Shown here piece after piece: positions 653 to 64,000 of a DNA stretch of 64,000 nt (positions are counted from its first letter, which is position 1; each line of letters opens with the position of its first letter). Origin of the DNA: a virus. The position numbers and the translations under genes were made by a program. The notes beneath the pieces were generated by a model that saw nothing but the letters and a program-made list of their open reading frames with translations, searched no databases and was not told the DNA's origin. The stretch spans positions 69,628-133,627 of IMG/VR virus record IMGVR_UViG_3300047476_000597; one strand, given 5' to 3'.

Positions 653-1243
653 ATGTATACACAAAACGATGAAGAGTTTTACATCTTAGGGTATTTTAAA
701 GATTTTGTAGGAACCTGTTGTGAGATAGGAGCCAATGATGGAAAATACATAAGTAATACAGCTGCTTTAATAGATAGAGGATGGAAGAGTTTTATGGTTG
801 AGCCATCTAAGGCTTTTAATAAACTAAAAGATAACTATGCTGATAATCCTAATGTAGTATGTGTAAACGCTGGTATTAGTACAAAAGATGAAGATGTTGT
901 GTTTTATGAAGGTAGTGATTCATTATTATCTACTACACAAGAAAAACTAGTAGAGTTTTGGAAAGAGTGTACTTTTACTCCTACTACTGTAAAGATGCTC
1001 ACATGGAAAACTTTCTGTGATACATACAATGCAGGTCCTTTTGATTTTATATCACTAGATGCCGAGGGAATGGACTGGGATATTTTACAACAGATAGATC
1101 TTTCTAATACTAGCATGATATGTATGGAATATACAGCTGGTAATATACAATCCTTTGAGTCTTATTGTAAAAAATATGGTATGGTTAAATTAACGCATAA
1201 TGGCGAAAACCTTATAATGATAAGACCCAAAAAGAATGAATAA
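653..1243 (+). CDS. FkbM-family SAM-dependent methyltransferase
   Basis: MYTQNDEE start (ATG 653; the track starts at 641), EIGANDG SAM-binding motif, SNT, VEP, and DFISLDAEGMD..IL motif typical of FkbM. Confidence 0.85.
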   Translation: MYTQNDEEFYILGYFKDFVGTCCEIGANDGKYISNTAALIDRGWKSFMVEPSKAFNKLKDNYADNPNVVCVNAGISTKDEDVVFYEGSDSLLSTTQEKLVEFWKECTFTPTTVKMLTWKTFCDTYNAGPFDFISLDAEGMDWDILQQIDLSNTSMICMEYTAGNIQSFESYCKKYGMVKLTHNGENLIMIRPKKNE

Positions 1244-4200: not shown

Positions 4201-4565
4201 ACGGAGAAAAGAAAAAAGTAGAGTACGGAATAACACGTATTCCTGATATATGGTTATTAAGAGAGATGCAACAGTATCAAGAAAAGGATGGCCGAAACTA
4301 TGACCGTATAATAGCTTTCTGTGCTCTTGTAGCTTTTGTTAATATACGTCTTAGTACATTACCTGGTCTGTATACTGATACACATGTTAACAGTAGCAGT
4401 GAGCAAACAGACAAAGATAAAAAGATGAGTAGTAATGATAATATACGTATCTTTAAAGAGAACACACAAACATTTAGGAATCTTCTTGGAATGGACAGTA
4501 ATACCAGTGTTACTAGCGATTACAGCAAATACAAAAGAAGATCTCCTTTCAAAAACCTAAGATAA
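1236..4565 (+). CDS. terL: Terminase large subunit (crAss-like) with an intein; about 762 aa after splicing
   Basis: Walker A-like LKKRQIGSS, Walker B LFFHEEAG restored after intein removal, nuclease motif GSIDPV; lies directly upstream of the portal. Confidence 0.93.
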   Translation: MNKKPYIKIPTNTNGVWSYTEFLSRDSFRVFVKNCFKEPGTCGFNEVSKRFNEQAKVFSKKGLYCEAPEGSRDYITYWDTEKEKCRKGVIFSDGSNSWYLPRDLYFWWNFLKIADKEKKTEAFPEVWDVHYYMALYNILAQLYDKHSGILKKRQIGSSLYHMAKLINLLWFEKSQILKMGASAKDYINNDKGSWLILDYYRDFLNKHTGWYRPMSPDKSASMSWQQRLEVKENGRISYEGNSSKITGTSFEKNATAGVGGPCLLKDSLILMADASYKKVQDILLGDLICGADGLPKKVVELYSGVDTIYEIKQTRGATYYTTADHSLYLWNHYKSSFVKILAKNFNNLSIYKRTKKLSGIKFSGIKGQKKELPIDPYYLGLFLGDGTRGDYRILVNETKDPEIAEYITQLAETEIGYRLTKRFRNLTRPEYNDTMTDYGIVKKARGVNSKYSFTFDELGLEKKHIPNIYYTSSKEQRLELLAGLIDTDGYLNKEKKRYEISITDKVLADDIVKLSIQLGFNTQRCVIENSGIKSTVYNKPTKSHRINITGNISIIPCKVKRKIATDVSTMATNNYSKLQVTKWGIDEYFGFACEDSLFVLEDGTITHNCRLFFHEEAGIAPKMGETFEFMRPALSMGGILTGQFIAAGSVGNLDQCKPLENMIKNPHGNSIYAVKSTLVNENGDEADTGLFIPEQWGRPPHIDQYGNSLVQEALEAIKKERHVWEHGNPVTGEKPIDKEKLQLRISQQPINIDEAFAIRKTSLFPNRYVKPQIQRIEDGEYKMEYVDLERNELGQVITVPSKRLPLEYGSSMTLEDKRACVVIYKHPIQGKIPLRTYLGSIDPVAGDKSITSASLACIYIYEMPIYRVHTNPDGTKETTTEGGRLVASWTGRYDDVNETNEQLSMLVEYYQAYTTCEYNVGTWVQYMIAKKRTRYVAVKEDMMYDKELGITQSSMNNYGWYNVDRVWKKMLQDSIDYIAEEILVIKGEDGEKKKVEYGITRIPDIWLLREMQQYQEKDGRNYDRIIAFCALVAFVNIRLSTLPGLYTDTHVNSSSEQTDKDKKMSSNDNIRIFKENTQTFRNLLGMDSNTSVTSDYSKYKRRSPFKNLR
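2019..3059 (+). mobile_element. Intein (347 aa) with LAGLIDADG homing endonuclease, inserted in TerL
   Basis: N-terminal CLLKDSLILMAD, block B TTADH, endonuclease motifs PYYLGLFLGDG and LLAGLIDTDG, C-terminal ITHN followed by extein Cys (TGT 3060-3062). Confidence 0.95.
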
Positions 4566-7321
4566 TGGGAGTAGTTGATGCAGTACAATTAAAGAATGGT
4601 TATGTAGATAAACACAATGTTGCAAAAGGAATACTAATGCAACCATTGTCTTTTATACCTGATTCGCAAAAGGATATAAACTGGTCTGCTCGGTATATGG
4701 ATTATATTGAGTATGAAGGACTACGACAGATAAAAAGAAATGCTAGTAAGTTTATAAAAAACTATAACCTAGCTAATGGTACTATAGACCATACAGACTA
4801 TGTAAGAACTGATGGGGAACATGCAGAGCTAATACAATCTTGCCTAAAAGAAGGAACTGGAACTAGTGCATTACATTTTTATCCACTGGCAGATAACCTA
4901 GTAGAAGTTCTTACTAATGAGTTTTCTAAGAGGAATAGTAAGGTAACATTCGATCTCAGAGATGTGTATTCTCAGAATGAGTTGTTTGATGCTAAAACTG
5001 CAGAGGTAGAACAAACACTACTGCAGCAAGCTTATATTAAGCAACGACAGAAAATGGAGCAGTTAGGGTTTACTGAAGACAGTGAAGAGGGTCAGCAGCT
5101 GGTAGGAAAAAATGCTATAAAGAGTTTACCAGAGATACAGCAGTTTTATAACACTGGCTATAAGAACCAGCTGATCCACTGGGCTATGGACCGTATGCAT
5201 AAAGACTCTGATAGATTTTATATGCCAGAATTAGAACGACTGCAGTTTAAAAACATGTTGATTGTGGATAGGGAGTTTTGGCATTTTAGAATGTTAGAAA
5301 ACGACTATCAGGTAGAGATGTGGAACCCTTTACTCACATACTATAAAAAATCTCCTAGGACTAAATACATAGCAGATGGTCTTTTTGTCGGTACCTCAGA
5401 GTTATGGGCAATACCAGATGTAGTAGACCTTCTAGGGTGGATGATGACAGACGAGCAGCTGGAATCACTAGACCGCATATACCCCTCTACTGGTCTTAAC
5501 TATATACAAGAAGGAGTACAGAATGATGGAGCTATGTACGATAACACACAATCGTATGAGTGGAACTCGGAAGGGCCTGGTGTAGCTATGAGACAGTTTA
5601 TGTCTATGAAACAGGCTATGGGTGATCCAAACTCTTTTAATGGTGACATTATATACAAAGTTCTTGGAGAAGCTGAAGATATGAAAGGTAACTATCGTCA
5701 GTTTTTTGCTAGGGTATCTACTATATACTGGAAGACATATAGAAAAGTAGGTAGACTGATTAAGATAGATGAATATGGCAATCAGTTTCAAGAGTTTGTT
5801 ACTGAGGACTATGTTATTATGGATAAACCACTATATGATACTACTATAATAAAAACCAAAACCGCAGAAAACCTTATATACGGAGAGCACATAGAATGGA
5901 CATACAATACAGAGGTATGGGGTGGTGTTAAGGTAGGCCCTTGTTTACCAATGGGTTATACTGCTGCTAATCAAGGATTATTCAATCCTATCTATTTAGG
6001 ATTGAATGACAAAAAACCAGGTAGACTCCCTTTTCAGTTTAAAGGTACCGATAATACATTCGGATGTAAGCTACCTGTAGAAGGAGCAGTATTCCATGAC
6101 TACAATGTGTCTAGCAGATCCTTTATAGATAGATTATATCCATGGCAGATAGGCTATAACATGATGATGAACATGGTTATAGACCTCAACATAGATGAGT
6201 TAGGTAATATTCTTATACTAGACCAGAATGTATTACCAAAACACTCTCTAGGAGAAGAATGGGGAGAAGGCAATTTCTTTAAAGCACTAGGACTAGCTAG
6301 AGACCTTTCTTTATTGCCAGTAGATACTACTCGTACTAATACTCAACAGGCTATACATCAAGGGTTTGCTCAGAAACTAGACATGAGTCAAACTGAGAGA
6401 ATATTGGCAAAAGCCAACCTTGCCATGTTCTTTAAACAAGGAGCTCTTAGTTCAGTGGGTTTCACACCAGAAAGAATGGGTACACCTATAGACAGAGAGG
6501 TAACAGCTACACAGATCAACCAAGGAGTAGCTTCTTCATTTGCTCAGACTGAACAATATTTCATAGACCACTGTGATGGTCTTATGCCTAGAGTACACCA
6601 ACAACGTACAGAACTAGCACAATACTATACAGCTAAGAATCCTTCAGTACGTATTCAATATAGTACAGACAGCCTTAGTCAGGTAGTACTAGAAATGACT
6701 AGTGATAATCTGTTACTACGTGATTTTGGTGTTTATGCCAAAACAGATATTAACAGCAGACATATACTAGAGCAGGTTAAGCAGCTGGTAGTAGCTAACA
6801 ACACATCAGGAGCTTCTATATTCGACCTAGTAAGAACATTGAAAATAGACAATACTGCTGATATGGATACCCTTATGAACAGTATAGAAAAAAGAACACA
6901 GCAAGAACAACAAGCACAAGCACAACAAGCACAGGAGCAGTTTGAAAAAGAGCAAGAACAGCTGTGGGCTATACACGAAGATACTCAAGCACATCAGATG
7001 GAAGCTCTTAATATGAAACTAGCTAATGACCGATATGTAGCAGAGGTTAAGGCAGCTGGTATGTCAGGTTCAGTAGACCTAGATGCTAATAAGCAGAATG
7101 ATTACATGGACAACCTAAAGATGATACAAGGGCAAGAACAGCATAATGATAAGATGTCTTTTGATAGAGAGAAGGAGGTAACTAGAAATGCACTAGAGAA
7201 TAAAAAACTACAACTAAGACAAGAGGAGATTCAAGCACAGAATATGAGGACACGCCAGGAAATACAGGTAGCAAAGATCAATAACAAGGTAAAAGAAAAA
7301 GAAAAGAGTAAGAAAAAATAG
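4565..7321 (+). CDS. Portal protein (crAss-like)
   Basis: 918 aa, follows terL; FKNMLIVDREFWH..WNP, EVWGGVKVG and PWQIGYN segments and a coiled-coil barrel C-terminus match crAss/P22-type portals. Confidence 0.88.
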   Translation: MGVVDAVQLKNGYVDKHNVAKGILMQPLSFIPDSQKDINWSARYMDYIEYEGLRQIKRNASKFIKNYNLANGTIDHTDYVRTDGEHAELIQSCLKEGTGTSALHFYPLADNLVEVLTNEFSKRNSKVTFDLRDVYSQNELFDAKTAEVEQTLLQQAYIKQRQKMEQLGFTEDSEEGQQLVGKNAIKSLPEIQQFYNTGYKNQLIHWAMDRMHKDSDRFYMPELERLQFKNMLIVDREFWHFRMLENDYQVEMWNPLLTYYKKSPRTKYIADGLFVGTSELWAIPDVVDLLGWMMTDEQLESLDRIYPSTGLNYIQEGVQNDGAMYDNTQSYEWNSEGPGVAMRQFMSMKQAMGDPNSFNGDIIYKVLGEAEDMKGNYRQFFARVSTIYWKTYRKVGRLIKIDEYGNQFQEFVTEDYVIMDKPLYDTTIIKTKTAENLIYGEHIEWTYNTEVWGGVKVGPCLPMGYTAANQGLFNPIYLGLNDKKPGRLPFQFKGTDNTFGCKLPVEGAVFHDYNVSSRSFIDRLYPWQIGYNMMMNMVIDLNIDELGNILILDQNVLPKHSLGEEWGEGNFFKALGLARDLSLLPVDTTRTNTQQAIHQGFAQKLDMSQTERILAKANLAMFFKQGALSSVGFTPERMGTPIDREVTATQINQGVASSFAQTEQYFIDHCDGLMPRVHQQRTELAQYYTAKNPSVRIQYSTDSLSQVVLEMTSDNLLLRDFGVYAKTDINSRHILEQVKQLVVANNTSGASIFDLVRTLKIDNTADMDTLMNSIEKRTQQEQQAQAQQAQEQFEKEQEQLWAIHEDTQAHQMEALNMKLANDRYVAEVKAAGMSGSVDLDANKQNDYMDNLKMIQGQEQHNDKMSFDREKEVTRNALENKKLQLRQEEIQAQNMRTRQEIQVAKINNKVKEKEKSKKK

Positions 7322-49200: not shown

Positions 49201-52200
49201 GAGTTACGTCTTAAGATGGAAGAGTTTGAGGCTAAGAGTGATACTATAGTGTTTGGACACCCTGTTACTGCTTCTAAGGGCATGAAGGTAGATATAGCAC
49301 CTACTGTTTCAGCTGTTACTGATAGTAACTTCCAACAGCTAAATGCTCAGTACATGAGAAAACAGGTAGAGAATCCATCTAACAAGATACAGATTACCTC
49401 TCCTACTCAGGCTATGATTCAGATTATGGCTGAACAAAACCCTGATACTAAGGTTGTATTCTTAGGTAGTGAGAAAGACAGTGATGGTAATGACTGGACT
49501 GTAGGTAGAATACGTGACATATATCAAGAGAGTATAGCACAAAGGAAGACTAATAGTTTTAATACAGCTGTTAACGACATAGTAGATTATGAGGGAGCAT
49601 TAGTTGAGTTACAGACTAGTATAGACATACAAAAGCTGACTCCTAAACTAGGTCGCTTTATTAAGAATGCACAGGAGATGTTAATGGCTACTGGTGCTGA
49701 CAGCCAGACACTAGGATTCTTTGAGCTAGACGCACAGGGAGAACCTATATACGACATGAACTTTCCAGCTGTACTAACAAAATACACGCAGCTGTTCCTT
49801 AGTTATTTCTCTAAGGGCATATTATCAGAAAAGGTTCCTGGTATGTCAGTAGCTACTGTGTCACCATGGGGTATACGTAAGATTAAAATAGTGACTAGTA
49901 TATGGAAAGAAGGTGACAAGGGCTACAAGAAAGCACTAGAAGGACAACCACGTACATGGAAGGTAGTAACAGATGCTGAGATAAGAGCTAATCCAGCTGC
50001 ATATAGTAATCCTATTGACTGGAGTACACAAGATGAGTATGCAAGAAGATACGAGGGGCTACAGGTAGGAGATATATACGTAGATGATCTTAGACACAAC
50101 TATCCAAAATACGATGAGAAAGGTAATTACCTAGGACAGTTTTCTGAGTGTCTTATACCAGCTCATTATAAAGATGTTATGGATAAAATACCAGAAGCAT
50201 TACGGTTTATGTTTGGTATTCGTATTCCATCTGATGATAAGCACTCTTATGTAGCACTAGAGTATGTAGACACATTACCGGCTCAGTATGGTAGTGTTGG
50301 TGTATTCCCACAAGAGATTATAGAGATCTCTGGTATGGACTTTGATATAGACAAGATGTACATAGAGATGGCTGATACCTATGCAGAACTGCAAAGAGAA
50401 AACCAAGAAGAATATGATACGTTAAAAAATATAATAGACAGAACAAAAGCCAGATTAAACGAACTTTCTGGTATGTTTGAAAATACTCCTGGGTATTCTA
50501 AAGAAATAGCAGACAAAGGACGACAGATAAAAGAAGTAAAGAAATATGTTAAAGCGCAGTATGACAATCTAGTTATTACAGAGTCTGATTACATTGATAG
50601 AATACAAGAACTGGATAATGAGTTAGAGTCTCTTGGTACTATGGAAGGAGCAAAATATAGAAGACCTATCATACAAGAGATGAAATCTTTATCTGGACAA
50701 TTAGTAGGAATAAAAGCCAGAATAAAACAATTAACAGAAACATCTGTTAGAGTGGCTTATGGTTCAAAAACTGACACACAAGGAATATTTGATGAGTATG
50801 TAAAATGGCAATTTGCTAATAATAATGCATTTAGAGCTAAAATAAAAGAACTAGCTAGTATAGGACCAGTTGATGTAGGTGGAGATATAGTAGGTAATAT
50901 AAACTCAGACATTATAGCAGACATAGAAGATATTTATGAGTTATTATCTGCAACTTCTATAGATAAGATGATTCTTAAGACTGCTTTAGCAGAGTTAGGT
51001 ATGCCTACTGATGCTATAGAGTATTATAATATGACCCATGAAAATGGTGTACAGATAAAAGATCTCAACAACGGTGTGCTTACTAACAAAGCTCTATCTG
51101 CTAAACTAGCTATGTTAAATAACGATGATATTGCAGTAGATACAGAAGAACAGCTGTCTATACTCAACCAGGGTACGTCAGTAGACATCCTCAGTAGTTT
51201 AGTAGATGACCTTGTTGTAGAGTTTACTGCTATGCAATCTAACGAGAGCATACCAGCTGCAGATAAGAAGAACATCACTAGAGTACTGAAGGTTCTACAG
51301 GAACCAGATGTTAATGTGGATAGTCTTAGAGGTAAACTAGCTTCTAATATGAATAACAAAGAAGGTAGCCGTAATATTGGAGCAGCTGTTCTATCTATGT
51401 TGGTGTTCTCTACACTGAACCAGCACAATATGACACTGTCATCAACAGACTATCAGCTGTCGTTTGATGGTAAGGACTATTTTAGCTTCATAGATACTAA
51501 AACAACTGATGGTAAAAGAAAGTTTGCACAGATCTCTGCTATTGTGAATGCAATGACGGACAATGCTAAAGAAAGACTAGCAGCTAAACTAGGACTGAAC
51601 ATAGAAGCAGTTGGTTATGTATCTGCTATGGTGGCTCTTGGTGTACCTATTAAAACAGCTACACTAATGATGTTACAACCTATAGTAAGAACCTATTTTA
51701 AACAGCTACAGGCTACTAAGGGTAGTATAAAAACAGACGAAGAAAAAAAGGTACGTGCTTCTACTTTACTAGCTAACATAATAGACAGTGTTAAAAACAT
51801 TGGTGGAGTAGACCTTACAGATACTAACATGATTAGCAATATAGCTGGTGGTGACAATAACTCAGCTGTTAGTGCATCTGCTATACGTATGTTGGCTAGA
51901 GTAGATAAGGTATCACAAAACATTGCACAGATAGCTAAGGTTACTAGACTACAAAAGGGATTGCCAAAAACATATGAAGAGATTGATAGTATACTATCAA
52001 CTATAGCAACATTGTCAGATCCTTTTACACCGGCACCTATACCATTCTTTACTGTTATAGGTACTGATCCTATTATGCGTACTAACATACGTATATTGGA
52101 GCAGATCAACAGTATAGCACCAGCATTCTTTACAGAAAGAACGGCTGCCTTTAAGAACATAACAGACATCATACATGCTAACTTTGAACCAGAAAGAAGA

Positions 52201-53902: not shown

Positions 53903-56900
53903 ATGGCAAGCTGTCCTAACTACAACGCACCAGAGTTTAAAGAAATAGAGGCTTTGTTTGGAAGAACAAGATCTACTCTTGCTTTTCATAAAAATAATGA
54001 TACAATACCATCACCAGAACTAGCAGCCCGACTATTACGTGTTAAACTAGAACCAGTACTAGATTATGAAGAAGCTGTTCAACGGTTACTAACAGGTTTT
54101 GAAAAAGGCTTAGTAGCAGTTACTAACACCCCAGATAGATATGTTTATAGAACTACTAAAGGTGGGTATACAGAAATAGCAGCTAAGGTAGCAGAGTGGA
54201 AAAACAAAACTACTGCTTTTAGTAAGGTTAGGGTAGAAGCCAGTGATAACTATGAAACCTTTCGTTTTGTTCGTGTTACTGAACCATATAGCAAACTAAC
54301 AGAAGATGAGTTTGGAGAGATATACCCAGAACCACTATCACCAGCTATACAGGCTCGTATAGAGAGAGAGGTAGAGGCTCTTATGTCTAATGAGTACTAT
54401 AATAAAGATGGTGAGCTAGTTAGTAGTGCAGATGATATAAAATACCAGCTTACTAATGCAACAACAGAACAACCAATACAAGACCTAGACAACATTATCA
54501 AAAGATTCGTAGCTGCTATGGGTGGTAATGTTACTAATGTAGGTGACATTGTTATTAACGGCAAAAAAATAGATGCTGTAGCTGTTGTTGATATTCTTAA
54601 TAGAGCTATACAGATAGCAGATGGTAAAGCAGACATCACTACTCTACCAGAAGAAGCAGTCCATCTATTCATAGAACTATTACCAGCTAACCATCCTCTA
54701 TTAAAAGAGATGCTAGCTGACATTAAGAAGAAACAGGTGTATCAAGATGTACTAGCTGAGTATGGTACTAACGAGTTTTATCTCAACCCAGATGGTACTG
54801 TTAACACAGATAAAATAGCTAAAGAGGCTATTGGTAAACACATTGCAGCTGTTATAGTAGGTAGATATAAAGACACTAAGAGTATGTCTTTTTGGAAGAG
54901 ACTGTGGAGATGGATCTCAGAACGACTAGCTGGTAAAAAACTAGATGCCTATACACAGGTAGCTAAGGATATACTAGGTGGTAAACTGAGTAAGATAGAA
55001 GAGACAGCTGCTAAAAAAGCTAATAAAGAAGGTCGTTATTGGTTCCAGCTACCGAAGAATACTAATGCTATTGTACAGGGTATTGCAGCTACCGGCACTA
55101 AACAACAAAAGGAGATAATCAGAGACTTGGTTATAGAACCAAAGGTTACATTCATAGAGAATAAAGCTCTTGGTGTACGAGAATATCGTAGTACTATTAT
55201 AGGTAATGAGGGTAGAACATATCCTGGTTTCTCATCACAGCTGGCTGTAGAAGGGCCACCTAATCCAGAAGAATATGAGATTAATAGACAATGGGGAGAA
55301 GACCTAGACTCTATACTAGCCGGTGTTATATTGAACCAAAAACTATCAGACATTAATACTCCTACTCTTAATGATACTATCAGACAAAAGGCATACGATC
55401 TGTTTGAAGAGTATCTATCACCATACAAAGAAGCTGGTTATGTAGCTGTACCACAGGTTATTGTCTATGACGATGCTGCTAATATAGCATCTGCTATTGA
55501 TCTGTTGTTAATATCTCCTACTGGTGCTCTAAAAGTTGTAGACCTAAAAAGCTCTTGGACATCTGCTGCTAATATACAAAAATACAAAGGAACAGCATGG
55601 CCGTTGTTACCTACCAGTAGAGTAATCAGCAATACACAATCTATATCAAAGTTCCGTCAGCATAATGTACAGGTTAATACCTACAACAAACTGCTACGAC
55701 TCATGGGCTATCAAGATATAGAAGATGCTGCTATTAAGAATATACAGATAATGTATAGGGACAATAACGGTGTTTTTACAGCTACTGATATAAAAGAGGA
55801 TAATGACCAAACAACAGCCGGCACTGGGTATGTAAAAGAACGTGTTGTAGATCCATCTGCTGAAGAGGGACTAGTAGAGCTTATGGTCCCTGTAGCTGTT
55901 GATTATACTAAAGACAACCTAGAGACCTGGGGAATAAAACCTAAGATAACAGCTAGTACAGAGCCGGAATCTAAACCGTATGAACGTATAGACGAAGAAC
56001 TAACAGCTGATGATAAGGATAGTCTATCTAAAGAGTTCTCTAATATGTTTGAGGCCCTTAAACAATATAGAACATTGTTAGCAGATAGAAGAGCAAAAGC
56101 TAGTAATGCAGAAGAAAAAACAGATAGGTCAAAAGCTCTAGACACACTAGAAGAGGTCATGAGTACTATGCTTGCAGCTGTTGATAATACTAAGAATGGT
56201 AGAGAGATAGCATACACACAGTTTCTTTTGTATGTTAATAAGGGACTAGAGGATATAATAACAGTACTGAGTAAAGAAGAGAATAAGCACAACCCACTGT
56301 ATCTACACTGGACTATTATGGCCGAGGCTTTTGTTACTCAGTTTCAGGGCTATACAGGTTTATTCAGATTCTCTAATAAAAAACAAGAATGGAACAACCT
56401 TATTACAGATATAGCAGATAAACTAAGAACAGTACAGCCTATTATTATAGACTCTTATAGACAAGGTGTGTTAACATCTGTAATAAAAAAATACAGTACT
56501 AGAGATGTTATACTAGAGTCGTTAGTAGAAAAAGATACAGATCTTACTAACATGGCTGCTACATTCATAGATATGGCTAATTCTCGTAATGCCATACTAG
56601 AGAATCTAGACAAGAGTTTTAAACATGATGTAGAGCTTATCAGGGAAAGTACTGATGCTATTGATAATAGAATAGTAGATGCTGCTAACCAGGTTATAAA
56701 AGCATTTGGTAAAAAAGATGCTAGTGTGTTTGAACTATTGTTTGAAAAAGACCGTCATGGTAATAAGACTGGTAGATTCATATCAGCAATAGGACCTGTA
56801 TACTGGGAAAAAGAAGAGGCTCTTAGAGAACCACTACTAGATGAAAATGGTCAGTATAAAGAGTATATAAAGAATCCTAAAACAAAAGAAGACCTACAGT

Positions 56901-59440
56901 ATAATAAAGACCTTGCAGCTGCTCGTAAAAACTCTTATATGTTCTGGACTGCAGAAGATAGAGTATATGATGAACAGACCAGACAATACAAAAATGTAGA
57001 AGGTACATACCATAGATATACTAAAGAATATCAGGATGCTCGTAATGAGGTAATGAGATGGAATAGTACTGAGGGAAAATGGGTACCTAAAACTACTAAT
57101 GCTGCTTATTGGAACTTTATTAATAAATACCACTCAGCAAAAGTTGGTTATTATATAGCTGATAGAAAAAAGAATAGTAAGGGTATGTACGAGTATACAG
57201 GCACACTAATGTATGTAGATGCTGTTAGATACACACCGCACCCACAGTATAAGGAGATACTAGAGACTAGTAACGATGGGCAAGATATGTCTAATCCGGT
57301 ATACAAAAAACTACAGAAAGCTACTGATGCTAAGAGTGTTGCTTTATGGAACTTCTTCAATGTCTATAGGAATATACTATCTGAACAACAAGATGCGCTT
57401 CCTACATATACCAACAGCTGGTTCTCTAGGAATAACATCCCTAGAATACAGGCCAACTGGTTGAACATGATGGCAAAAGAAGGTAGTAATAAGAGTGCTA
57501 TGATTAGTAGTCAGATTAAGAGCTTCTTTGAGATTACAGCATATACACATCAACCTGCAGTAGCTATGACTGGTGACTCTTCACAACAGTTACCACTATT
57601 ATTCATGGGTAGGTTACGTGACCAAGCTGTAGTACAGAGACTAAAAACACAGCTGGCTAAACACAATAGTATAGATACTACTAAAATGTCTGCTATTGAA
57701 AAAAGAGCATGGAAACAAGAGCAGAGTAGAATAGAAGAGAACATTAAAATAGAAAACGCTAGAATAACAGCTGCAGATATAGAGCCAGATCTAGTAGAAG
57801 GGTTACGTGCATTTGTACAGATGTCTCAATCTTTCAAAATAAAAAGAGCAGCAGAGGATAGGATTACAGCTGTAAAAAAGACTATAGATAACATGGTCTT
57901 TATACAGGAAAAGAAAAACATGCTAGGTAAAGTAGTATCTACTAAAGAGGTAGCTGGTGTAGACTCTAATGCAAAACAACGACTTTCCGACTACCTAGCC
58001 ATGAACTACTATAGTGGTGAGGCTGTTTCTAAAGAGTTTCTAGACATATTGGCTGACCGACTAATGAAGGTGACATCTACTATAGGACTAGGTTTTAACG
58101 TGTTCTCTTGGGCCAACAACGTTACTACTGGTGTATTGAACAACTATATAGATGCATATGGTGGAGAATTATACCAGAAAAGGTCTCTTAACAGAATGAA
58201 AAAAGAGTCTACTCTTGCTATTGGTGCATTAGTAAGACACAAGATGGATTCTGTTGTTAACAAGACTCTAGGGTATGATAAACAAAAACCTGTATCAAAA
58301 TACGAGGCACTGTCTCAGAGATTTAACATGATAGAACACCATATACAGCAGCACTCTGGTAAGGTAGACTGGATAGCTAAACTAGGTGGCTTTACTGGTA
58401 TGGAAAAAGGTGAGTGGTTAGTACAGAGTATGGTTGGTAATGCGATACTAGATTCTATTCAGGTTGAGTATACAGGCAGTGATCCAGCTAAAAAAGGTAG
58501 TAAGAAATCTCTATACGATGCTTATGAGTTTGATGAGAAAACAGGTGCTGTTACTCTAGAAGAAGGCTATGAGCTATCTGACCATGACCGTAGGGATATT
58601 ATTAATAGAATACGTGAGACTAATAAGAGAATACATGGTAACTATCGGGCTATAGATAAGGTTGTTATTGAAAAAGAATGGTGGGGCCGTGTTATGATGC
58701 AGTATCATAAATGGGTTATACCGGCATATTCAGCTAGGTTCCGTAAACTAAAATACGATGAAAACCTTGGTGGTGGTATGCATATAGAGGGTAGATGGAG
58801 ATCAGCTGGTAAGTTCCTAATGGCACTCAAAGACCGTACTATTACACTACAGACTCTTATAGATACTGTTAACACAGACTATACTAAGATGGACCCAGCT
58901 GCTCAGAAACAGTGGTTACTAGATGTCTGGAGTGGTCTTATTACAGCTGAAGAGTGGGATGAGATGTCAGATGAGGAGAAAACATCTTTAATAGCTCACC
59001 GAAAGAATAACCTACTCAAAGACCTGATGGACCTTGTATACATTGCACTACTATCTGTATTAGGCATATTGATTGCAGCTGTAGCAAGAGGTTTAGATGA
59101 TGACGATGAAGAGGTTAAGAAACTACTCAACTTCTTCAGGTACCAGGCAGACAGAAGTACAGCAGAATTAGCACTATTCGTACCTATCCTAGGTATCATA
59201 GAGGGCTATCAGCTGGTCAAAAACACCATAGCATCTACTAGTATAATAAAAGAAGCTGGAGAGTTAACAAAAGCACTACTGCAGTTTCCATTCATACCAG
59301 ACAGTGAGAAGACTATACAACGTGGTCCTAACAAGGGAAGATACAAGGTAGCCAAAGAAGCTGGTGATATAATACCTATCATTAAACAGCTACAACGTTG
59401 GAATGCCTTTGAAACTACTAAAGAGTTTTGGGTAAAATAA
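53903..59440 (+). CDS. Large ejected virion protein with degenerate zincin, PD-(D/E)xK nuclease domain and C-terminal TM
   Basis: TLPEEAVH; AIDLLLI..VVDLKS..QVNTY; RIHGNY; hydrophobic LVYIALLSVLGILIAAV. Confidence 0.75.
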   Translation: MASCPNYNAPEFKEIEALFGRTRSTLAFHKNNDTIPSPELAARLLRVKLEPVLDYEEAVQRLLTGFEKGLVAVTNTPDRYVYRTTKGGYTEIAAKVAEWKNKTTAFSKVRVEASDNYETFRFVRVTEPYSKLTEDEFGEIYPEPLSPAIQARIEREVEALMSNEYYNKDGELVSSADDIKYQLTNATTEQPIQDLDNIIKRFVAAMGGNVTNVGDIVINGKKIDAVAVVDILNRAIQIADGKADITTLPEEAVHLFIELLPANHPLLKEMLADIKKKQVYQDVLAEYGTNEFYLNPDGTVNTDKIAKEAIGKHIAAVIVGRYKDTKSMSFWKRLWRWISERLAGKKLDAYTQVAKDILGGKLSKIEETAAKKANKEGRYWFQLPKNTNAIVQGIAATGTKQQKEIIRDLVIEPKVTFIENKALGVREYRSTIIGNEGRTYPGFSSQLAVEGPPNPEEYEINRQWGEDLDSILAGVILNQKLSDINTPTLNDTIRQKAYDLFEEYLSPYKEAGYVAVPQVIVYDDAANIASAIDLLLISPTGALKVVDLKSSWTSAANIQKYKGTAWPLLPTSRVISNTQSISKFRQHNVQVNTYNKLLRLMGYQDIEDAAIKNIQIMYRDNNGVFTATDIKEDNDQTTAGTGYVKERVVDPSAEEGLVELMVPVAVDYTKDNLETWGIKPKITASTEPESKPYERIDEELTADDKDSLSKEFSNMFEALKQYRTLLADRRAKASNAEEKTDRSKALDTLEEVMSTMLAAVDNTKNGREIAYTQFLLYVNKGLEDIITVLSKEENKHNPLYLHWTIMAEAFVTQFQGYTGLFRFSNKKQEWNNLITDIADKLRTVQPIIIDSYRQGVLTSVIKKYSTRDVILESLVEKDTDLTNMAATFIDMANSRNAILENLDKSFKHDVELIRESTDAIDNRIVDAANQVIKAFGKKDASVFELLFEKDRHGNKTGRFISAIGPVYWEKEEALREPLLDENGQYKEYIKNPKTKEDLQYNKDLAAARKNSYMFWTAEDRVYDEQTRQYKNVEGTYHRYTKEYQDARNEVMRWNSTEGKWVPKTTNAAYWNFINKYHSAKVGYYIADRKKNSKGMYEYTGTLMYVDAVRYTPHPQYKEILETSNDGQDMSNPVYKKLQKATDAKSVALWNFFNVYRNILSEQQDALPTYTNSWFSRNNIPRIQANWLNMMAKEGSNKSAMISSQIKSFFEITAYTHQPAVAMTGDSSQQLPLLFMGRLRDQAVVQRLKTQLAKHNSIDTTKMSAIEKRAWKQEQSRIEENIKIENARITAADIEPDLVEGLRAFVQMSQSFKIKRAAEDRITAVKKTIDNMVFIQEKKNMLGKVVSTKEVAGVDSNAKQRLSDYLAMNYYSGEAVSKEFLDILADRLMKVTSTIGLGFNVFSWANNVTTGVLNNYIDAYGGELYQKRSLNRMKKESTLAIGALVRHKMDSVVNKTLGYDKQKPVSKYEALSQRFNMIEHHIQQHSGKVDWIAKLGGFTGMEKGEWLVQSMVGNAILDSIQVEYTGSDPAKKGSKKSLYDAYEFDEKTGAVTLEEGYELSDHDRRDIINRIRETNKRIHGNYRAIDKVVIEKEWWGRVMMQYHKWVIPAYSARFRKLKYDENLGGGMHIEGRWRSAGKFLMALKDRTITLQTLIDTVNTDYTKMDPAAQKQWLLDVWSGLITAEEWDEMSDEEKTSLIAHRKNNLLKDLMDLVYIALLSVLGILIAAVARGLDDDDEEVKKLLNFFRYQADRSTAELALFVPILGIIEGYQLVKNTIASTSIIKEAGELTKALLQFPFIPDSEKTIQRGPNKGRYKVAKEAGDIIPIIKQLQRWNAFETTKEFWVK

Positions 59441-59450
59441 TAATATTGAC

Positions 59451-59459
59451 TATCTTTAA
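59451..59459 (+). promoter_or_regulatory. TATCTTTAA motif upstream of ORF 59478 and the endolysin
   Basis: Exact intergenic copy. Confidence 0.65.
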
Positions 59460-59477
59460 ACTAATAAAACTAATACA

Positions 59478-59795
59478 ATGCCACAGAACGATTGTCTTTT
59501 TTTCTTTGTTCATTTGGACTCAACAGGTGCTCCGATTCCATCTACTATGTTCTCTAAGACTAATAACAAGATAGATAAAGGGTTTGAGTGTGTAGAAGCT
59601 CGTGTACCAGCTACACAGATGTCTAGGACTAACCAGTGCTTTCCAGCTAATGGCTTCAGGTACTACTACAAAACCCATAAGACTACCGGACGTATTCTTC
59701 CTAACAGTATGTATCAGTCACAAAAAGCTCCTAAGAGTTTCTGTACTGGTCGATATAACATCCTAGAGTTTATTGTTTATTCAACTACTGTATAA
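59478..59795 (+). CDS. Small hypothetical protein with internal duplication
   Basis: FFVHLDSTGAPIPSTMF and YYYKTHKTTGRILPNSMY halves; coupled to the endolysin. Confidence 0.6.
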   Translation: MPQNDCLFFFVHLDSTGAPIPSTMFSKTNNKIDKGFECVEARVPATQMSRTNQCFPANGFRYYYKTHKTTGRILPNSMYQSQKAPKSFCTGRYNILEFIVYSTTV

Positions 59796-60442
59796 TGACA
59801 GATAACAAACAACCATTTTGGAGCAAATTAGCTGGTAAAATACCTGATAGCATACTAACAGAGCTTACTACTATAGTTCCTTTGTTTGATATAGATGGGC
59901 CTAAGAGATTGTCTAATCTATTAGGACAAGCACACCATGAGTCAGGAGGTTTTAAACAGCTGTATGAGAATCTTAACTACTCGGCACAGAGTCTAGCAAA
60001 CACCTGGCCTACTAGATATGCTGTTGACTCAAAAGCAAAAGATAAAGTACCTAATGACCTAGCTAAGAAACTACAAAGAAAACCAGAAGCCATTGCCAAT
60101 AACTGTTATGCAAACAGAATAGGTAATGGTAATGAGACTTCTGGTGATGGTTGGTTGTACAGAGGTCGTGGGTATCTACAGACTACAGGAAAAGATAACT
60201 ACAAGGCACTAGGAAATTATCTGAAGATAGATCTCATAAAAAACCCAGACCTTGTAGCTACTATGTATCCATTAGCATCTGCAGCATTCTTTTTTATGAA
60301 TAACGTAAAATGGACTCTGTGTGACCAAGGTACTGATGCTATGACTATAGAACGTATTACTCGTAAGGTTAACGGAGGATTGCATGGTTTAGATGAGCGC
60401 ATTAAACACACGCAGCTGTATCATAAACTACTTACTGGATAA
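59795..60442 (+). CDS. GH19 (chitinase-like) endolysin
   Basis: LGQAHHESGGF..LYENLNYS, GDGWLYRGRGYLQTTGKDNY and ITRKVNGGLHGLDER motifs. Confidence 0.92.
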   Translation: MTDNKQPFWSKLAGKIPDSILTELTTIVPLFDIDGPKRLSNLLGQAHHESGGFKQLYENLNYSAQSLANTWPTRYAVDSKAKDKVPNDLAKKLQRKPEAIANNCYANRIGNGNETSGDGWLYRGRGYLQTTGKDNYKALGNYLKIDLIKNPDLVATMYPLASAAFFFMNNVKWTLCDQGTDAMTIERITRKVNGGLHGLDERIKHTQLYHKLLTG

Positions 60443-60451
60443 TAGTAGATA

Positions 60452-60793
60452 TTACTCTTCTATTACACTACATAGTTTTTTATATTCTCCTTTCCATATG
60501 GACAGTTGTCCATCGTTTCTGTTATCAATATACCTTACTATAATATCTCCATTTTCTTTAATACCGGCTACAAACGCTTCATCTTTAGTATTTTTTGATT
60601 CATTGTCCCAGATACATATTACATCTCTGTATCTAACAATAGGTTCTGTAATAGATACTCTAAACTTTTCAGGGTTTTCTTCTTTGTATTTTCTTGCATA
60701 TTCTTTTTGTTCTTTTTCATAGGCCTCTTGTCCTATTTCTTTTATTCTTGCGTCTCTGTCTTCATCGTAACAGTCTCTTGTAAATAGTCCCAT
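60452..60793 (-). CDS. Hypothetical protein
   Basis: 113-aa ORF ending the minus-strand cluster; A-rich leader. Confidence 0.65.
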   Translation of the reverse strand: MGLFTRDCYDEDRDARIKEIGQEAYEKEQKEYARKYKEENPEKFRVSITEPIVRYRDVICIWDNESKNTKDEAFVAGIKENGDIIVRYIDNRNDGQLSIWKGEYKKLCSVIEE

Positions 60794-60811
60794 ATTTTAT
60801 TGTTTTTATTG

Positions 60812-61273
60812 TTATAATATACCAATCCATTGCATAATCTTACGTAGTTCATTCTTACTCTTACACTCTCCCCAGAAGAGAGTATCTCCGAGTCCTTTCT
60901 GTAGTACAATACGTATCTGTCTAGTAGGATTATCTACAAGAAGAAATATCCTATCTTTATAGTCTCTAGCTGACATATTGTATCTACTAGTATTACCTTC
61001 TGTTATACCATCTATCCACCCTAACGACTCTATGTCTTCTCGGTCAAGGTATTTAGTTCTTACCCATCCTTGCTGTATATAATAGTTAGAAGGTTTACCG
61101 TAATATAACCCCCACTGATCCAGTATACTACATTCTTCTGGTTCTGTACCAGCAATATTTTTACTCCACTCACCTACCGATTCATAGTTTATTTTATTAC
61201 CATTAAACTCGTATTCATACCCTGGATATATATCTGCTGCATCAGGGGTATAGTATTTATTCTGTTGTTCCAT
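60812..61273 (-). CDS. Hypothetical protein of a family common in crAss-like phages
   Basis: KYYTP....GYEYE, RTKYLDREDIESLGW and FWGECKSKNELRKIM segments. Confidence 0.7.
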   Translation of the reverse strand: MEQQNKYYTPDAADIYPGYEYEFNGNKINYESVGEWSKNIAGTEPEECSILDQWGLYYGKPSNYYIQQGWVRTKYLDREDIESLGWIDGITEGNTSRYNMSARDYKDRIFLLVDNPTRQIRIVLQKGLGDTLFWGECKSKNELRKIMQWIGIL

Positions 61274-61454
61274 CTTTTAGTTTTTGTGGTCTATCAAGAA
61301 TATCCATCCATACAAAACTTAGATTAGCTCCTTTAAAAGGGTGGTTAAAACTTTGTACAATATCTCCGTCTTTTACTTCTTCTAGAAACTTACTATACTC
61401 TTCTTCTGTTATAGGATAGTTTAGCTCATGTACTTTTTTATTCTGTTGTTCCAT
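61257..61454 (-). CDS. 65-aa protein with a terminase Walker-B-like segment
   Basis: FKGANLSFVWMD; coupled to both neighbours. Confidence 0.6.
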   Translation of the reverse strand: MEQQNKKVHELNYPITEEEYSKFLEEVKDGDIVQSFNHPFKGANLSFVWMDILDRPQKLKDGTTE

Positions 61455-61684
61455 TATTCTAGTTTATTGTTTAGTTGGTTCATAATCTCTTTCCACACAT
61501 CTTTCTTTTCATACTCACACAGTACTTTACCACAGCTGGTTGTATACTCTATACAGTATAGATTGTTGTCTACCCATGATTGAATATTACAACCAGCTGC
61601 AGTGTTTATATGGCAGTGGAGTGTATCGTTTATATATACTTTTATGCGGTGATACAGTACTTTTACCTCTATCTTAGTTGGCAT
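61454..61684 (-). CDS. Hypothetical protein
   Basis: 76 aa, coupled stop/start. Confidence 0.6.
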   Translation of the reverse strand: MPTKIEVKVLYHRIKVYINDTLHCHINTAAGCNIQSWVDNNLYCIEYTTSCGKVLCEYEKKDVWKEIMNQLNNKLE

Positions 61685-61803
61685 CTTGTTCTTATTCTTT
61701 TGACCATTTTTCTACTCTTCTCTCTTAATATCCAACGGTACTGTTTCATCATTATATTATAACCTATCTGAAAAGGTAACATCATCTCTTCTAGTGTTTT
61801 CAT
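61669..61803 (-). CDS. 44-aa protein with a portal-like segment, absent from the ORF track
   Basis: Hand translation MKTLEEMMLPFQIGYNIMMKQYRWILREKSRKMVKRIRTRCQLR*; ATG overlaps the upstream TGA (ATGA) and fills the gap between neighbours. Confidence 0.7.
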   Translation of the reverse strand: MKTLEEMMLPFQIGYNIMMKQYRWILREKSRKMVKRIRTRCQLR

Positions 61804-61994
61804 TTGGATTTTATTATTACTTTTTGACTAGTTACATGTTTTACTACTTCTATAGCATATGCTTCCATTGCTTCTATGTAGCAGCTGTGCATACTACATA
61901 GTGGACAATCAGGTGCCGTTAACCCTCTATCTTTGTATGCTGGATCACAGTTACAGGATACATATTCTTCTAGTATTTCTTCAGCTGTTTTCAT
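61800..61994 (-). CDS. Small protein (MKTAEEIL...AMEAYA type) with CxC/CxxC
   Basis: 64 aa, ATGA-coupled on both sides. Confidence 0.65.
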   Translation of the reverse strand: MKTAEEILEEYVSCNCDPAYKDRGLTAPDCPLCSMHSCYIEAMEAYAIEVVKHVTSQKVIIKSK

Positions 61995-62557
61995 TGGTTT
62001 CTTCTATTTACTGTTATCTGGAACCACTCTTCTGCAGCTGGATTCTCTCTGCAGTATGTTACTATTTGTTCTTCTAGTTCTTTTATTCTTAATGCTTGAA
62101 TAAACAGCTGTGGTTTTGTTGTATCTATAGAGGATTTTTCTCGGTTTGCTTCTGATGACTCATGTAACAGGTATTCTTCAGCTTTTTTATCTGCTTCTGC
62201 ATTCCAGGGTATGTGCCTAGTGCTTTTTTCTAGTACTTCTTTAACAGAGTTGTTTTTTATTTCATAGTATTCTTCACTGAGTGGGTCTATTCTTCTTTCT
62301 TTTCCATTTTCATCTATATGTATCATACACTCTCCACAGATTAGTATATCATTGAACGTTTGATTTTCTATTTCTTTGACTGTATTATCTCCAGCTATTC
62401 TTTCTATTACCTTCCACATTTCTTCTTCGGAAGAGCTTGTTATTAGAGTTGCTATATCAGATATTGGTATACCATAAGATGTCACACCTTCTTTTACTAG
62501 TTTCTGTACTTTTTCTATTATCTCTTTTTGTTCTTTTGTCAATGTCGTTGTTACCAT
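61991..62557 (-). CDS. Hypothetical protein containing a portal-like segment
   Basis: Likely start 62557 (ATGGTAA overlap with the UDG-like stop); contains EIENQTFNDILICGECMIHI..RIDPL. Confidence 0.65.
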   Translation of the reverse strand: MVTTTLTKEQKEIIEKVQKLVKEGVTSYGIPISDIATLITSSSEEEMWKVIERIAGDNTVKEIENQTFNDILICGECMIHIDENGKERRIDPLSEEYYEIKNNSVKEVLEKSTRHIPWNAEADKKAEEYLLHESSEANREKSSIDTTKPQLFIQALRIKELEEQIVTYCRENPAAEEWFQITVNRRNQ

Positions 62558-63204
62558 ACTATGGGTGTTTGATTGTTTGCTTTTATCCACTCATTAGTTC
62601 TATTCCAGCAGTCTCTTGTATTGAGCTCTGGGTATGTACTAACATATATCTTTTTGTCTGTTTCTAGTAGATCTATTACGCTGGTTGTTCTAGTACCTAT
62701 GTGCATACATGGTATTTCTGGTTTAGCGGTATTCATCTTGTTTAGCATATAGGCTACAAACGGTTTCCATATCTTGTAGTGCGGTGTGCCGTACATTCTT
62801 GTTGTACATGACATTGGCATTATGAGTACTCCCTGATTACACCAGCTGCCTACATTCAGTGTTTCTCTTTTCTCTGGTAGTGACCCTAGCAGCTGTTTCT
62901 GGAGTTTACCCATGTTATTACTCTTATCATACAATGGTATACCGGTATTATTATTGAACAGGTTCTTATTGTCTGTATCCACTAACATTAGTACTGATAC
63001 ACTATCATATGGACACTCATACAACCACGAGAACATATCCTTTGCAGCTGGTACAAATTTCCCATTGAACACCCTGTCTTCATCTAGTGCTTCTATGATA
63101 CTCCTAAACTCAGGGCTTATCCACCACATCCACAGAGCATCAGACCAACCAGAAGGTTGTAATCTTTTTTTCAGTTCTTCTATTATTTTTTCTGTATTTA
63201 TCAT
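62551..63204 (-). CDS. Family-1 uracil-DNA glycosylase homolog with degenerate catalytic motifs
   Basis: ECPYDSVSVLM, WCNQGVLIM and HYKIWKPF match the UNG scaffold; GQDPY is replaced by VDTDN and HP by YP. Confidence 0.75.
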   Translation of the reverse strand: MINTEKIIEELKKRLQPSGWSDALWMWWISPEFRSIIEALDEDRVFNGKFVPAAKDMFSWLYECPYDSVSVLMLVDTDNKNLFNNNTGIPLYDKSNNMGKLQKQLLGSLPEKRETLNVGSWCNQGVLIMPMSCTTRMYGTPHYKIWKPFVAYMLNKMNTAKPEIPCMHIGTRTTSVIDLLETDKKIYVSTYPELNTRDCWNRTNEWIKANNQTPIVW

Positions 63205-63214
63205 TGGTTCTTAC

Positions 63215-63222
63215 TATTTTTG
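63215..63222 (+). promoter_or_regulatory. TATTTTTG (-7 box match) 4 nt before ATG 63227
   Basis: TAnnTTTG match in the divergent gap. Confidence 0.45.
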
Positions 63223-63226
63223 TACT

Positions 63227-63511
63227 ATGGATAACGCAAAGATACCGTATCTTAAGAAAGATGCAATAGTTTCAGTACAGATTGGCTCTGGTTTTCTAGA
63301 ACAGCTGTCTACTGTATACGCATATCTCACTGAGGGTATAACAAAAGAACAGGCTGATAGTATCAGTAATAAGCTAAAAGAAAAAAAGCCACTAGAGCTC
63401 AAAGAAGGAGCAATAGTGACTCTTAGTATGCTTATTAACAAGGTGTATGAACAGGCTAAAGAAACAGACCAGCTGATCTACAAAGACATTGAGACTCTAT
63501 TAGACAGCTAG
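63227..63511 (+). CDS. 94-aa hypothetical protein on the opposite strand of the accessory cluster
   Basis: MDNAKIPYLKKDAIVSVQIGSGF...; fits exactly between two minus-strand genes. Confidence 0.7.
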   Translation: MDNAKIPYLKKDAIVSVQIGSGFLEQLSTVYAYLTEGITKEQADSISNKLKEKKPLELKEGAIVTLSMLINKVYEQAKETDQLIYKDIETLLDS

Positions 63512-63512
63512 G

Positions 63513-63863
63513 CTACTGTTTATACTCGTACCTTCTCCATACAGGTTTTCCACCTCTTCTTTCTACTGTATTATCTGGTAGCCAGGAGAGGTATTTTTCT
63601 GGGTCGTTCTTGTCTGGTGGTTCTTGTGTTTCTATTGTTATTATCTCTCCCTTCATCTTGTATCCTACTTGTGCTTGCAGATTAATAACCTCTTCTAATG
63701 AGCCACACAGTTCTACACTACGTTCTTGTGTTTCTATAGGACCAGCTGCATGTAGCTGTATATCTTTTTGGTGTACCGTTATATAGTACGTATTATCTTC
63801 TCTTACAGTAATGGTACCACCTTTACCGTTATCCATTACTGTGGGTTGTCCTTTTATATGCAT
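63513..63863 (-). CDS. Hypothetical beta-rich protein, possibly OB-fold/SSB-like
   Basis: GEIITIETQEP..DPEK..GKPVWRR resembles a conserved crAss-like family recalled from memory; function uncertain. Confidence 0.5.
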   Translation of the reverse strand: MHIKGQPTVMDNGKGGTITVREDNTYYITVHQKDIQLHAAGPIETQERSVELCGSLEEVINLQAQVGYKMKGEIITIETQEPPDKNDPEKYLSWLPDNTVERRGGKPVWRRYEYKQ

Positions 63864-63874
63864 TTTTATATTGT

Positions 63875-64000
63875 TTACTCATCATCTTCTAACCAGCATA
63901 TATCAGGAGTAGGATCTTCTTCGTCTTCTTCATCTTCGTAGTCAATATCATCTATCGTTGGTATCCCTTTTATCTTTTCTCTGTACTCATTAACTGGTTT
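63875..64000 (-). CDS. 3' end of a gene with an acidic C-terminus (partial)
   Basis: KPVNEYREKIKGIPTIDDIDYEDEEDEEDPTPDICWLEDDE*, open to the window edge. Confidence 0.55.
   Translation of the reverse strand, partial: KPVNEYREKIKGIPTIDDIDYEDEEDEEDPTPDICWLEDDE

Follow-up and report, generated by a model that had tools for sequence, protein, structure and literature searches.

The window analysed here is a stretch of 64,000 nucleotides that makes up the second half of a virus record (IMGVR_UViG_3300047476_000597), which is itself a single contig of 133,627 bp with 36.6% G+C. An ORF of 1109 aa for the large terminase lies at 1236-4565, and our reading of its translation suggests an intein in mid-protein with a LAGLIDADG-type motif. 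The plus-strand block closes with two giant ORFs of 4557 aa (40225-53898) and 1845 aa (53903-59440) which, judging by their size and position, we take to resemble the large proteins that crAss-like phages package in their virions. Small minus-strand genes follow in a run that starts directly after the structural block and resumes at the other end of the contig. The short ORF that is the subject of this report, referred to below as the mini-ORF, sits within this accessory block on the strand opposite to the structural genes. The features considered are listed in Table 1.

Table 1. Features of the window that bear on the mini-ORF and on the portal segment that it resembles
Feature	Position	Strand	Basis
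Portal gene, 918 aa, crAss-like	4565..7321	+	PHROGs, tblastn, PDB, Foldseek
Portal residues 520-546, the outer (first) of its stem helices	6122..6202	+	AlphaFold2 model, comparison with T4 and crAss001
76-aa ORF downstream of the mini-ORF	61454..61684	-	16-nt overlap with the mini-ORF end
Mini-ORF, 44 aa plus stop	61669..61803	-	ORF list, AlphaFold2 model, relatives
Basic C-terminal tail, mini-protein residues 27-44, not portal-like	61672..61725	-	Alignment of five members, tail HMM
Stretch for which related phages have 37 other letters	61688..61826	n/a	Joint 61687 -> 61827
Portal-like segment, mini-protein residues 4-31 versus portal residues 520-548	61711..61794	-	hhalign, HMM alignment, identity counts
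64-aa Cys-rich ORF upstream of the mini-ORF	61800..61994	-	Stop overlaps the mini-ORF start (ATGA)

A preliminary description of this DNA had called the mini-ORF an ATGA-coupled minus-strand gene about 55 kb from the portal gene; the ORF list confirmed its coordinates and the overlap, and the distance is correct within the window. The last codons of the upstream Cys-rich ORF lie inside the variable stretch listed in Table 1. A scan of positions 60300-64000 for promoters and terminators returned 17 promoter-like sites, with 14.8 expected, and no minus-strand terminator. No Pfam family matched the mini-protein, and the searches of Pfam and PHROGs gave it no defence-related name. A weak match was found to an unnamed PHROGs family, phrog_2818 (E 0.0033, 18.3 bits, residues 12-44 versus positions 4-36 of a 56-position profile).

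The family of the mini-protein, as recovered from searches covering 5.8 and 1.84 billion proteins, comprises one 90% cluster of four members (44-46 aa, 75-95% identical) and one protein of 92 aa with 54% identity. The motif shared with the portal is kept in all five known members, including the one that is only 54% identical, so that the conservation check proposed earlier came out in favor of the motif. All five retain P-x-x-I-G-Y, Q21, W24 and I25 along with a run of basic residues, and of the 16 columns that are invariant, in a set of five sequences only, six (P10, I13, G14, Y15, Q21 and I25) coincide with positions conserved in portals. AlphaFold2 predicted a single helix spanning residues 4-43 (pLDDT 91.7). 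Within the family, conservation of the basic tail extends to residue 38. When an HMM of the tail was used to search the 898 six-frame ORFs, it found only the family itself (next ORF E 1.7), and the tail is therefore not a recurring tag in this genome.

Further searches for relatives returned little. Megablast of the gene cluster against a phage collection gave no match, tblastn against phages with either the mini-protein or P0005, the distant member of the family, gave none at E values up to 10, and a search of viral and metagenome contigs with the mini-family profile found no related locus. The same was true of a related-locus search for P0005 and a 217-aa neighbour. A homologue search with P0005 returned P0005 itself only, and the ESM Atlas gave no usable match. 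The third phmmer match, P0006, was considered as a family member and taken as spurious, being a 544-aa tandem-repeat protein in which the tail was matched in eight stretches. We also considered whether the downstream 76-aa ORF might be a split-off form of the C-terminal extension of P0005, and found no likeness (E 0.72).

The identification of 4565-7321 as a portal gene was upheld by PHROGs (phrog_6547, 4.6e-68), by PDB (7qog gp20, E 1.8e-8) and by Foldseek (7qoi, E ~1e-27). With tblastn the protein showed 27% identity to Leptolyngbya phage Lbo-JY46 and was matched less strongly by crAss-like phages of Cellulophaga and Bacteroides. AlphaFold2 modelled the portal with a mean pLDDT of 66.8 and placed residues 520-546 in a single helix, which is followed by a poorly ordered region at 547-606 containing a short helix and strands, a second helix at 607-631, a gap, and a long helix at 648-691. 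The same order is reported for the T4 portal, namely stem helix, clip, stem helix, tunnel loop and bent wing helix, and residues 519-541 are given as the inner stem helix of crAss001 gp20. The crAss001 gp20 helix that aligned to portal residues 520-546 lies about 100 residues before that inner stem helix, and the piece copied in the mini-protein is therefore the first and outer of the stem helices, the one that precedes the clip.

Portal residues 440-640, used as a query, retrieved 5,497 homologues, of which the best 120 were aligned. Among the resulting 121 portals the copied stretch is one of the most conserved parts of the protein: Q528, N532 and N536 are present in all 121, G530 in 119 and Y531 in 118. 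Over the helix as a whole, Q528, G530, N532, N536, D540, D544 and E545 vary in none or hardly any of the 121.

The likeness was originally noticed as PFQIGYNIMM in the mini-ORF (61747-61776) against PWQIGYNMMM in this phage's own portal (6140-6169, residues 526-535), and the 8/10 identity is correct. BLASTP extended the pair to 8/18 identities and 14/18 positives (23.9 bits, pairwise E 3e-4). The DNA does differ at synonymous positions, with 43 of the 87 aligned nucleotides identical and the third base common to five of the eight identical residues, two of them Met, and so it is the peptide rather than the DNA that is shared. The proposed extension of the likeness upstream (TLEEMML versus SFIDRLY) shares no identical residue with the portal of the phage itself and was sustained only as two identities, L and M, with the consensus of the portal family.

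Taken alone, the match to the phage's own portal is within chance. Against the 188-gene proteome its E value is 0.34, and in an all-against-all comparison 59 other pairs score at least as high. Windows with 8/10 identity occur in five real protein pairs, compared to a mean of 3.5 in 12 shuffled proteomes, and even by the measure that favors the finding most, the 10-residue BLOSUM62 sum of 47, which is the best in the real proteome, one of the 12 shuffles did as well. These counts are in keeping with the view that two amphipathic helices have come to resemble each other by chance or convergence, with no historical or functional tie to portals. The fact that the finding was picked post hoc from the whole window points the same way, as does the failure of P0005, when used alone as a phmmer query, to retrieve the portal (E 1.7).

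Against this explanation stand comparisons with the portal family as a whole, for which HMMs were built without the phage's own portal and run against all 898 six-frame ORFs of at least 30 aa in the genome. With an HMM of the segment, whose region was picked after the match had been seen, the mini-ORF was the top non-portal ORF at E 7.5e-6 (21.8 bits), with the next ORF at 0.42. It was again the top non-portal ORF with the full-length portal HMM, at E 0.0017 (12.0 bits; next ORF 0.072), a value that becomes roughly 0.1 after a rough correction for a genome-wide search with all families. Dropping the three closest portals as well left the ranking of the mini-ORF unchanged. None of 5000 shuffles of the mini-protein reached the real scores, the maxima being 7.7 bits for the segment and 5.8 bits for the full length, and the best non-portal scores among 4807 ORFs from 56 other phage loci were 6.8 and 4.9 bits, respectively. 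The HMM alignment pairs mini-protein residues 3-23 with portal-profile positions 517-537. A profile-profile comparison with portals by hhalign, one of the checks suggested at the outset, gave a probability of 91% and E 1.1e-6 over 29 columns (mini-protein 3-31 versus portal 520-548).

The reverse searches gave the same pairing. A profile of the mini-family, run against five related phage records, had the portal as its sole match in five of five (E 2.9e-4 to 6.8e-3), each time at the same helix and inside portal frames of 706-919 aa, and in its own genome the portal was the top non-family match (E 0.0033; next 0.23). The portal segment HMM also retrieved P0005 (E 0.0014). The mini-protein shares up to 13/30 positions with portals of the major clade versus 8/30 with its own portal, and where its own portal departs from the consensus the mini-ORF carries the consensus residue or a common variant at seven further positions, identities that the own portal could not have supplied. 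By these profile comparisons the likeness of the mini-ORF to the portal family is not chance, and we regard coincidence or convergence as very improbable. In profiles and in shuffles the match exceeds chance for the portal family, and for the phage's own portal alone it does not.

The stem-helix signature, namely P, Q-I-G-Y-N and a later Q, I and L, is present in the mini-protein according to the HMM, the shuffles and hhalign. The complete portal fold, a clip-stem-wing-crown arrangement that takes several hundred residues and builds a dodecameric ring (phrog_6547, P22-type PF16510), is not, as the mini-protein consists of 44 aa with one predicted helix and a match of 29 columns. Along the portal helix runs an invariant stripe of polar and acidic residues (N536, D540, D544 and E545), most of which the mini-protein has not kept, with K, W, E and K in their place. 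Only part of the surface of the portal helix has been copied.

We also looked for other portal-like fragments in the region. A six-frame scan of 59400-64000 with the full HMM recovered the mini-ORF segment and one weak, non-collinear match only, and the possibility of a decayed second portal gene was rejected. An island of packaging-protein fragments had also been noted in the window, with a neighbouring gene of 199 aa (61991-62590) as part of it. In that protein the full portal HMM aligned residues 13-69 with profile positions 720-775 at E 0.072, a score equalled or exceeded by 8 of 3000 shuffles, and for the segment originally named the segment HMM gave E 0.28 at rank 3, behind an antisense ORF. 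By these scores the portal likeness of the 199-aa protein is within chance for both segments, so the island was not borne out for this gene, and this failure counts to some extent in favor of coincidence for the mini-ORF too.

The DNA of the cluster was found in freshwater and lake metagenomes, where the mini-gene is present in some relatives and absent in others. An identical contig of 420 nt spanning the mini-gene was present in run X2, and of two 179-nt variants in run X6 one differs at 5 positions and the other at 24. Two contigs of run X4 carry a joint, 61687 -> 61827, with 37 other letters in place of the intervening stretch, and matching loose ends occur in run X5. The flanks of these contigs differ from the window by about 4-6% (X4) and 7-11% (X5), and the replacement shows that related phages exist without the mini-ORF. 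In these forms the two flanking genes abut, and the 64-aa gene has a different short C-terminus, as read by hand from the junction. In the RNA library X4 the form lacking the mini-ORF was present and there was next to no cover of the mini-ORF. A complete relative of 125 kb, whose portal is 47% identical, has no mini-ORF either, and the gene is therefore dispensable. Across the 3.5-kb cluster at 60400-63900 we counted nine joints among the relatives, with skips of 139-458 nt. This is a hyperplastic region in which whole small genes are present or absent, and given these joints and the absence of the mini-gene both from relatives that are about 90-96% identical and from the complete 125-kb genome, we consider the mini-gene to be an optional cassette.

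DNA repeats were noted at the starts of adjacent minus-strand genes. Owing to an exact repeat of 18 nt (61256-61273 and 61437-61454), two of these genes begin with the same six residues. Longer repeats of 41 nt (61784-61824 and 61975-62015) and 45 nt (61965-62009 and 63175-63219) have 71-78% identity. The repeats at small-gene starts, which fall into families D1, D2 and D10, could serve as recombination points for the gain and loss of cassettes. Separately, a 724-nt contig of otherwise different sequence in run X2 matched only positions 61737-61774, the 38 nt encoding the motif, with seven differences; it may represent a portal gene or another member of the family.

The mini-gene could be a captured fragment, derived from a portal gene by illegitimate recombination in this region of shuffled genes and either co-opted or left as a relic, with a likeness to portals that would now be incidental. 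It might then have an unrelated role, such as binding nucleic acid, binding a host protein or self-association, or have none and be on its way out. Several observations are in keeping with this. The nine joints in 3.5 kb and the repeats, which could drive the shuffling of cassettes, are among them, as are the loss of the gene in close relatives and in the complete related genome and the tiny size of the family. The mini-protein also has a net charge of about +9, and a hand count of identities between the window protein and P0005 shows the basic tail to be as conserved as the portal-like part (7/12 versus 13/24). On the other side, every variant found has an unbroken frame and retains the start coupling and the stop. 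In addition, a protein of one helix lacks an internal core, and any residues that it conserves must be there for contacts; these are the same residues that are conserved in portals. A fragment with an incidental likeness seems to us a tentative and somewhat improbable explanation.

Since the conserved residues of the mini-protein are largely those conserved in portals, we favor a mimic of the stem-helix site. Glycine within a helix allows helices to pack closely, and a glycine is among the residues that the mini-protein conserves. We propose that the mini-gene encodes a portal-derived mimic of the stem helix that titrates an interaction of the portal, with co-infecting related phages as its favored target, and we place the probability of this reading, which is drawn from sequence comparison and predicted structure, at about one in three. 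The mini-ORF would be a real, optional accessory gene in a hypervariable minus-strand block, probably expressed early, of a 134-kb crAss-like freshwater phage. The first two thirds of its product would be derived from the first stem helix of crAss-type portals, or be a close copy of it, down to the helix's most conserved residues (P, Q-I-G-Y-N and the later Q, I and L), and the last third would be a family-specific, strongly basic tail.

How such a protein might act can be outlined as follows. The free helix would dock on the surface that normally receives the portal stem helix, which might belong to an adjacent or still unassembled subunit of the portal, or to a protein such as the large terminase that holds the stem or clip. 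Docking would titrate that interaction in the manner of a natural dominant-negative fragment, with the tail perhaps strengthening the binding or making another contact. Since portals of the major clade are a better match to the mini-protein (13/30) than the portal of the phage itself (8/30), we infer that it would be aimed at packaging in related phages that co-infect, and not at the phage's own packaging machinery. An inhibitor of the portals of competing phages had been the second alternative in the preliminary description, and it fits this difference in match. The portal helix of the phage itself is identical to the consensus at 15/30 positions by hand count, versus 41-44% identity with most major-clade portals; it is thus not unusually diverged and shows no sign of escape from an inhibitor that the phage itself makes. 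A complex prediction for the mini-protein with residues 30-760 of P0035, a major-clade portal, run without controls, gave a score of 0.00 and a mark of 0.32 and speaks neither for nor against binding. Counting against a mimic of the stem helix are the tiny size of the family among billions of proteins, the dispensability of the gene, the loss of most of the acidic stripe, the ordinary divergence of the phage's own portal helix, the failure of P0005 alone to retrieve the portal, and the fact that the match to the phage's own portal is within chance.

The first alternative in the preliminary description was an immune decoy, in which the helix would imitate a portal epitope and occupy a host sensor that detects portals, blocking it or blunting its activation ahead of the synthesis of the real portal. 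Several STAND families are reported to sense portals (Avs4, Avs11), and the residues copied are among the portal's most conserved (Q528, N532 and N536 in 121/121), which is the kind of feature that a sensor would read. The location of the mini-gene in an accessory block on the strand opposite to the structural genes would suit such a role, and polymorphism for presence and absence is typical of counter-defence genes. Fusions with fragments of essential viral genes have also been proposed as decoys in Bodo saltans virus (PMC5871332). Avs sensors, however, are described in a 2026 preprint as reading folds via extended interfaces, in contrast to Lit and CapRel, which sense short motifs. A single helix is a poor copy of a fold and is therefore unlikely to be a good Avs decoy, which weakens this reading. 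Nothing in our analysis ties the mini-gene to Avs2 or Avs4, and among the anti-Avs proteins in the literature searched we found none that acts as a mimic of the target. A decoy thus appears distinctly unlikely.

It is tempting to speculate more broadly that phages keep dominant-negative excerpts of their virion proteins as weapons, that the mini-gene, made early, jams the assembly of the portal ring or the docking of the terminase in rivals, and that this crAss-like example represents a wider and undescribed class. We consider a generalization of this breadth rather unlikely. If the helix does compete for a portal contact, it would be a natural peptide inhibitor of an assembly step that is universal to tailed phages and herpesviruses, and the first stem helix would be marked as an exposed and targetable surface of unassembled portal subunits. 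It would also exemplify accessory genes of a new kind, through which a phage uses part of one of its virion proteins as a weapon against rivals or against host sensors, and would supply a rule for finding more, namely the search of small accessory ORFs with profiles of virion proteins. Should it prove to be a relic only, it would still show how the hypervariable regions of crAss-like phages take up gene-sized fragments of structural genes and preserve their reading frame.

In the literature that we searched, no phage gene copying a portal helix is described. The mini-protein can be compared with systems that share parts of its proposed behavior. The closest structural counterpart is the first stem helix of portals itself (crAss001 gp20, PDB 7qog, and the stem helices of T4 gp20). 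The two are linked by the 29-column profile match and the shared P and Q-I-G-Y-N, and the predicted helix of the mini-protein begins in register with portal helix 520-546 by hhalign and the models. The mini-protein differs in having no clip, wing or crown, in having lost most of the acidic stripe, and in its added basic tail. A functional parallel may be the clip peptide of T4 gp20, residues 288-311, a stretch of 24 residues reported to bind the terminase gp17 and inhibit DNA packaging (PMC4493910). Both would be short excerpts from the stem and clip of a portal that compete for one of its interactions. The T4 peptide, however, is a laboratory reagent taken from the clip, whereas the mini-protein is encoded by a natural gene, corresponds to the stem helix just before the clip, and is a competitor by conjecture.

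Virion assembly is also the point of attack of the SaPI1 protein CpmB, reported to compete with the scaffolding protein of its helper phage 80alpha for a site on the capsid protein (PMC5644958). CpmB is, as the mini-protein may be, a small helical protein of a mobile element that uses the contacts of a virion-assembly protein to compete for a site. CpmB, however, imitates the end of the scaffold, redirects capsid size and is encoded by a satellite, whereas the mini-gene is carried by a phage and proposed to act against rivals. The ankyrin proteins of Bodo saltans virus, which contain fragments of essential viral genes, resemble the mini-gene as excerpts of a virus's own essential proteins that the virus itself encodes, and their role as decoys is likewise a proposal (PMC5871332). 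They belong to a giant virus of eukaryotes and fuse fragments of catalytic domains to ankyrin repeats, whereas the mini-protein is a lone portal helix with a tail. Finally, dominant-negative effects at interfaces of oligomerisation have been reported for fragments of essential E. coli proteins (Savinov et al. 2022, PMC9245647). Such a fragment titrates the interactions of its parent by copying a native contact, often the one through which the parent oligomerises, and we suggest that the mini-protein is an excerpt of this sort, with the difference that those fragments come from engineered E. coli libraries and the mini-gene has apparently been kept naturally by a phage genome. The T4 clip peptide, CpmB and the engineered fragments are precedents for interference by short excerpts and in that respect favor the mimic. 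The mini-protein is thus neither a portal nor a member of any named family, and if it acts at all, it would act like a dominant-negative fragment.
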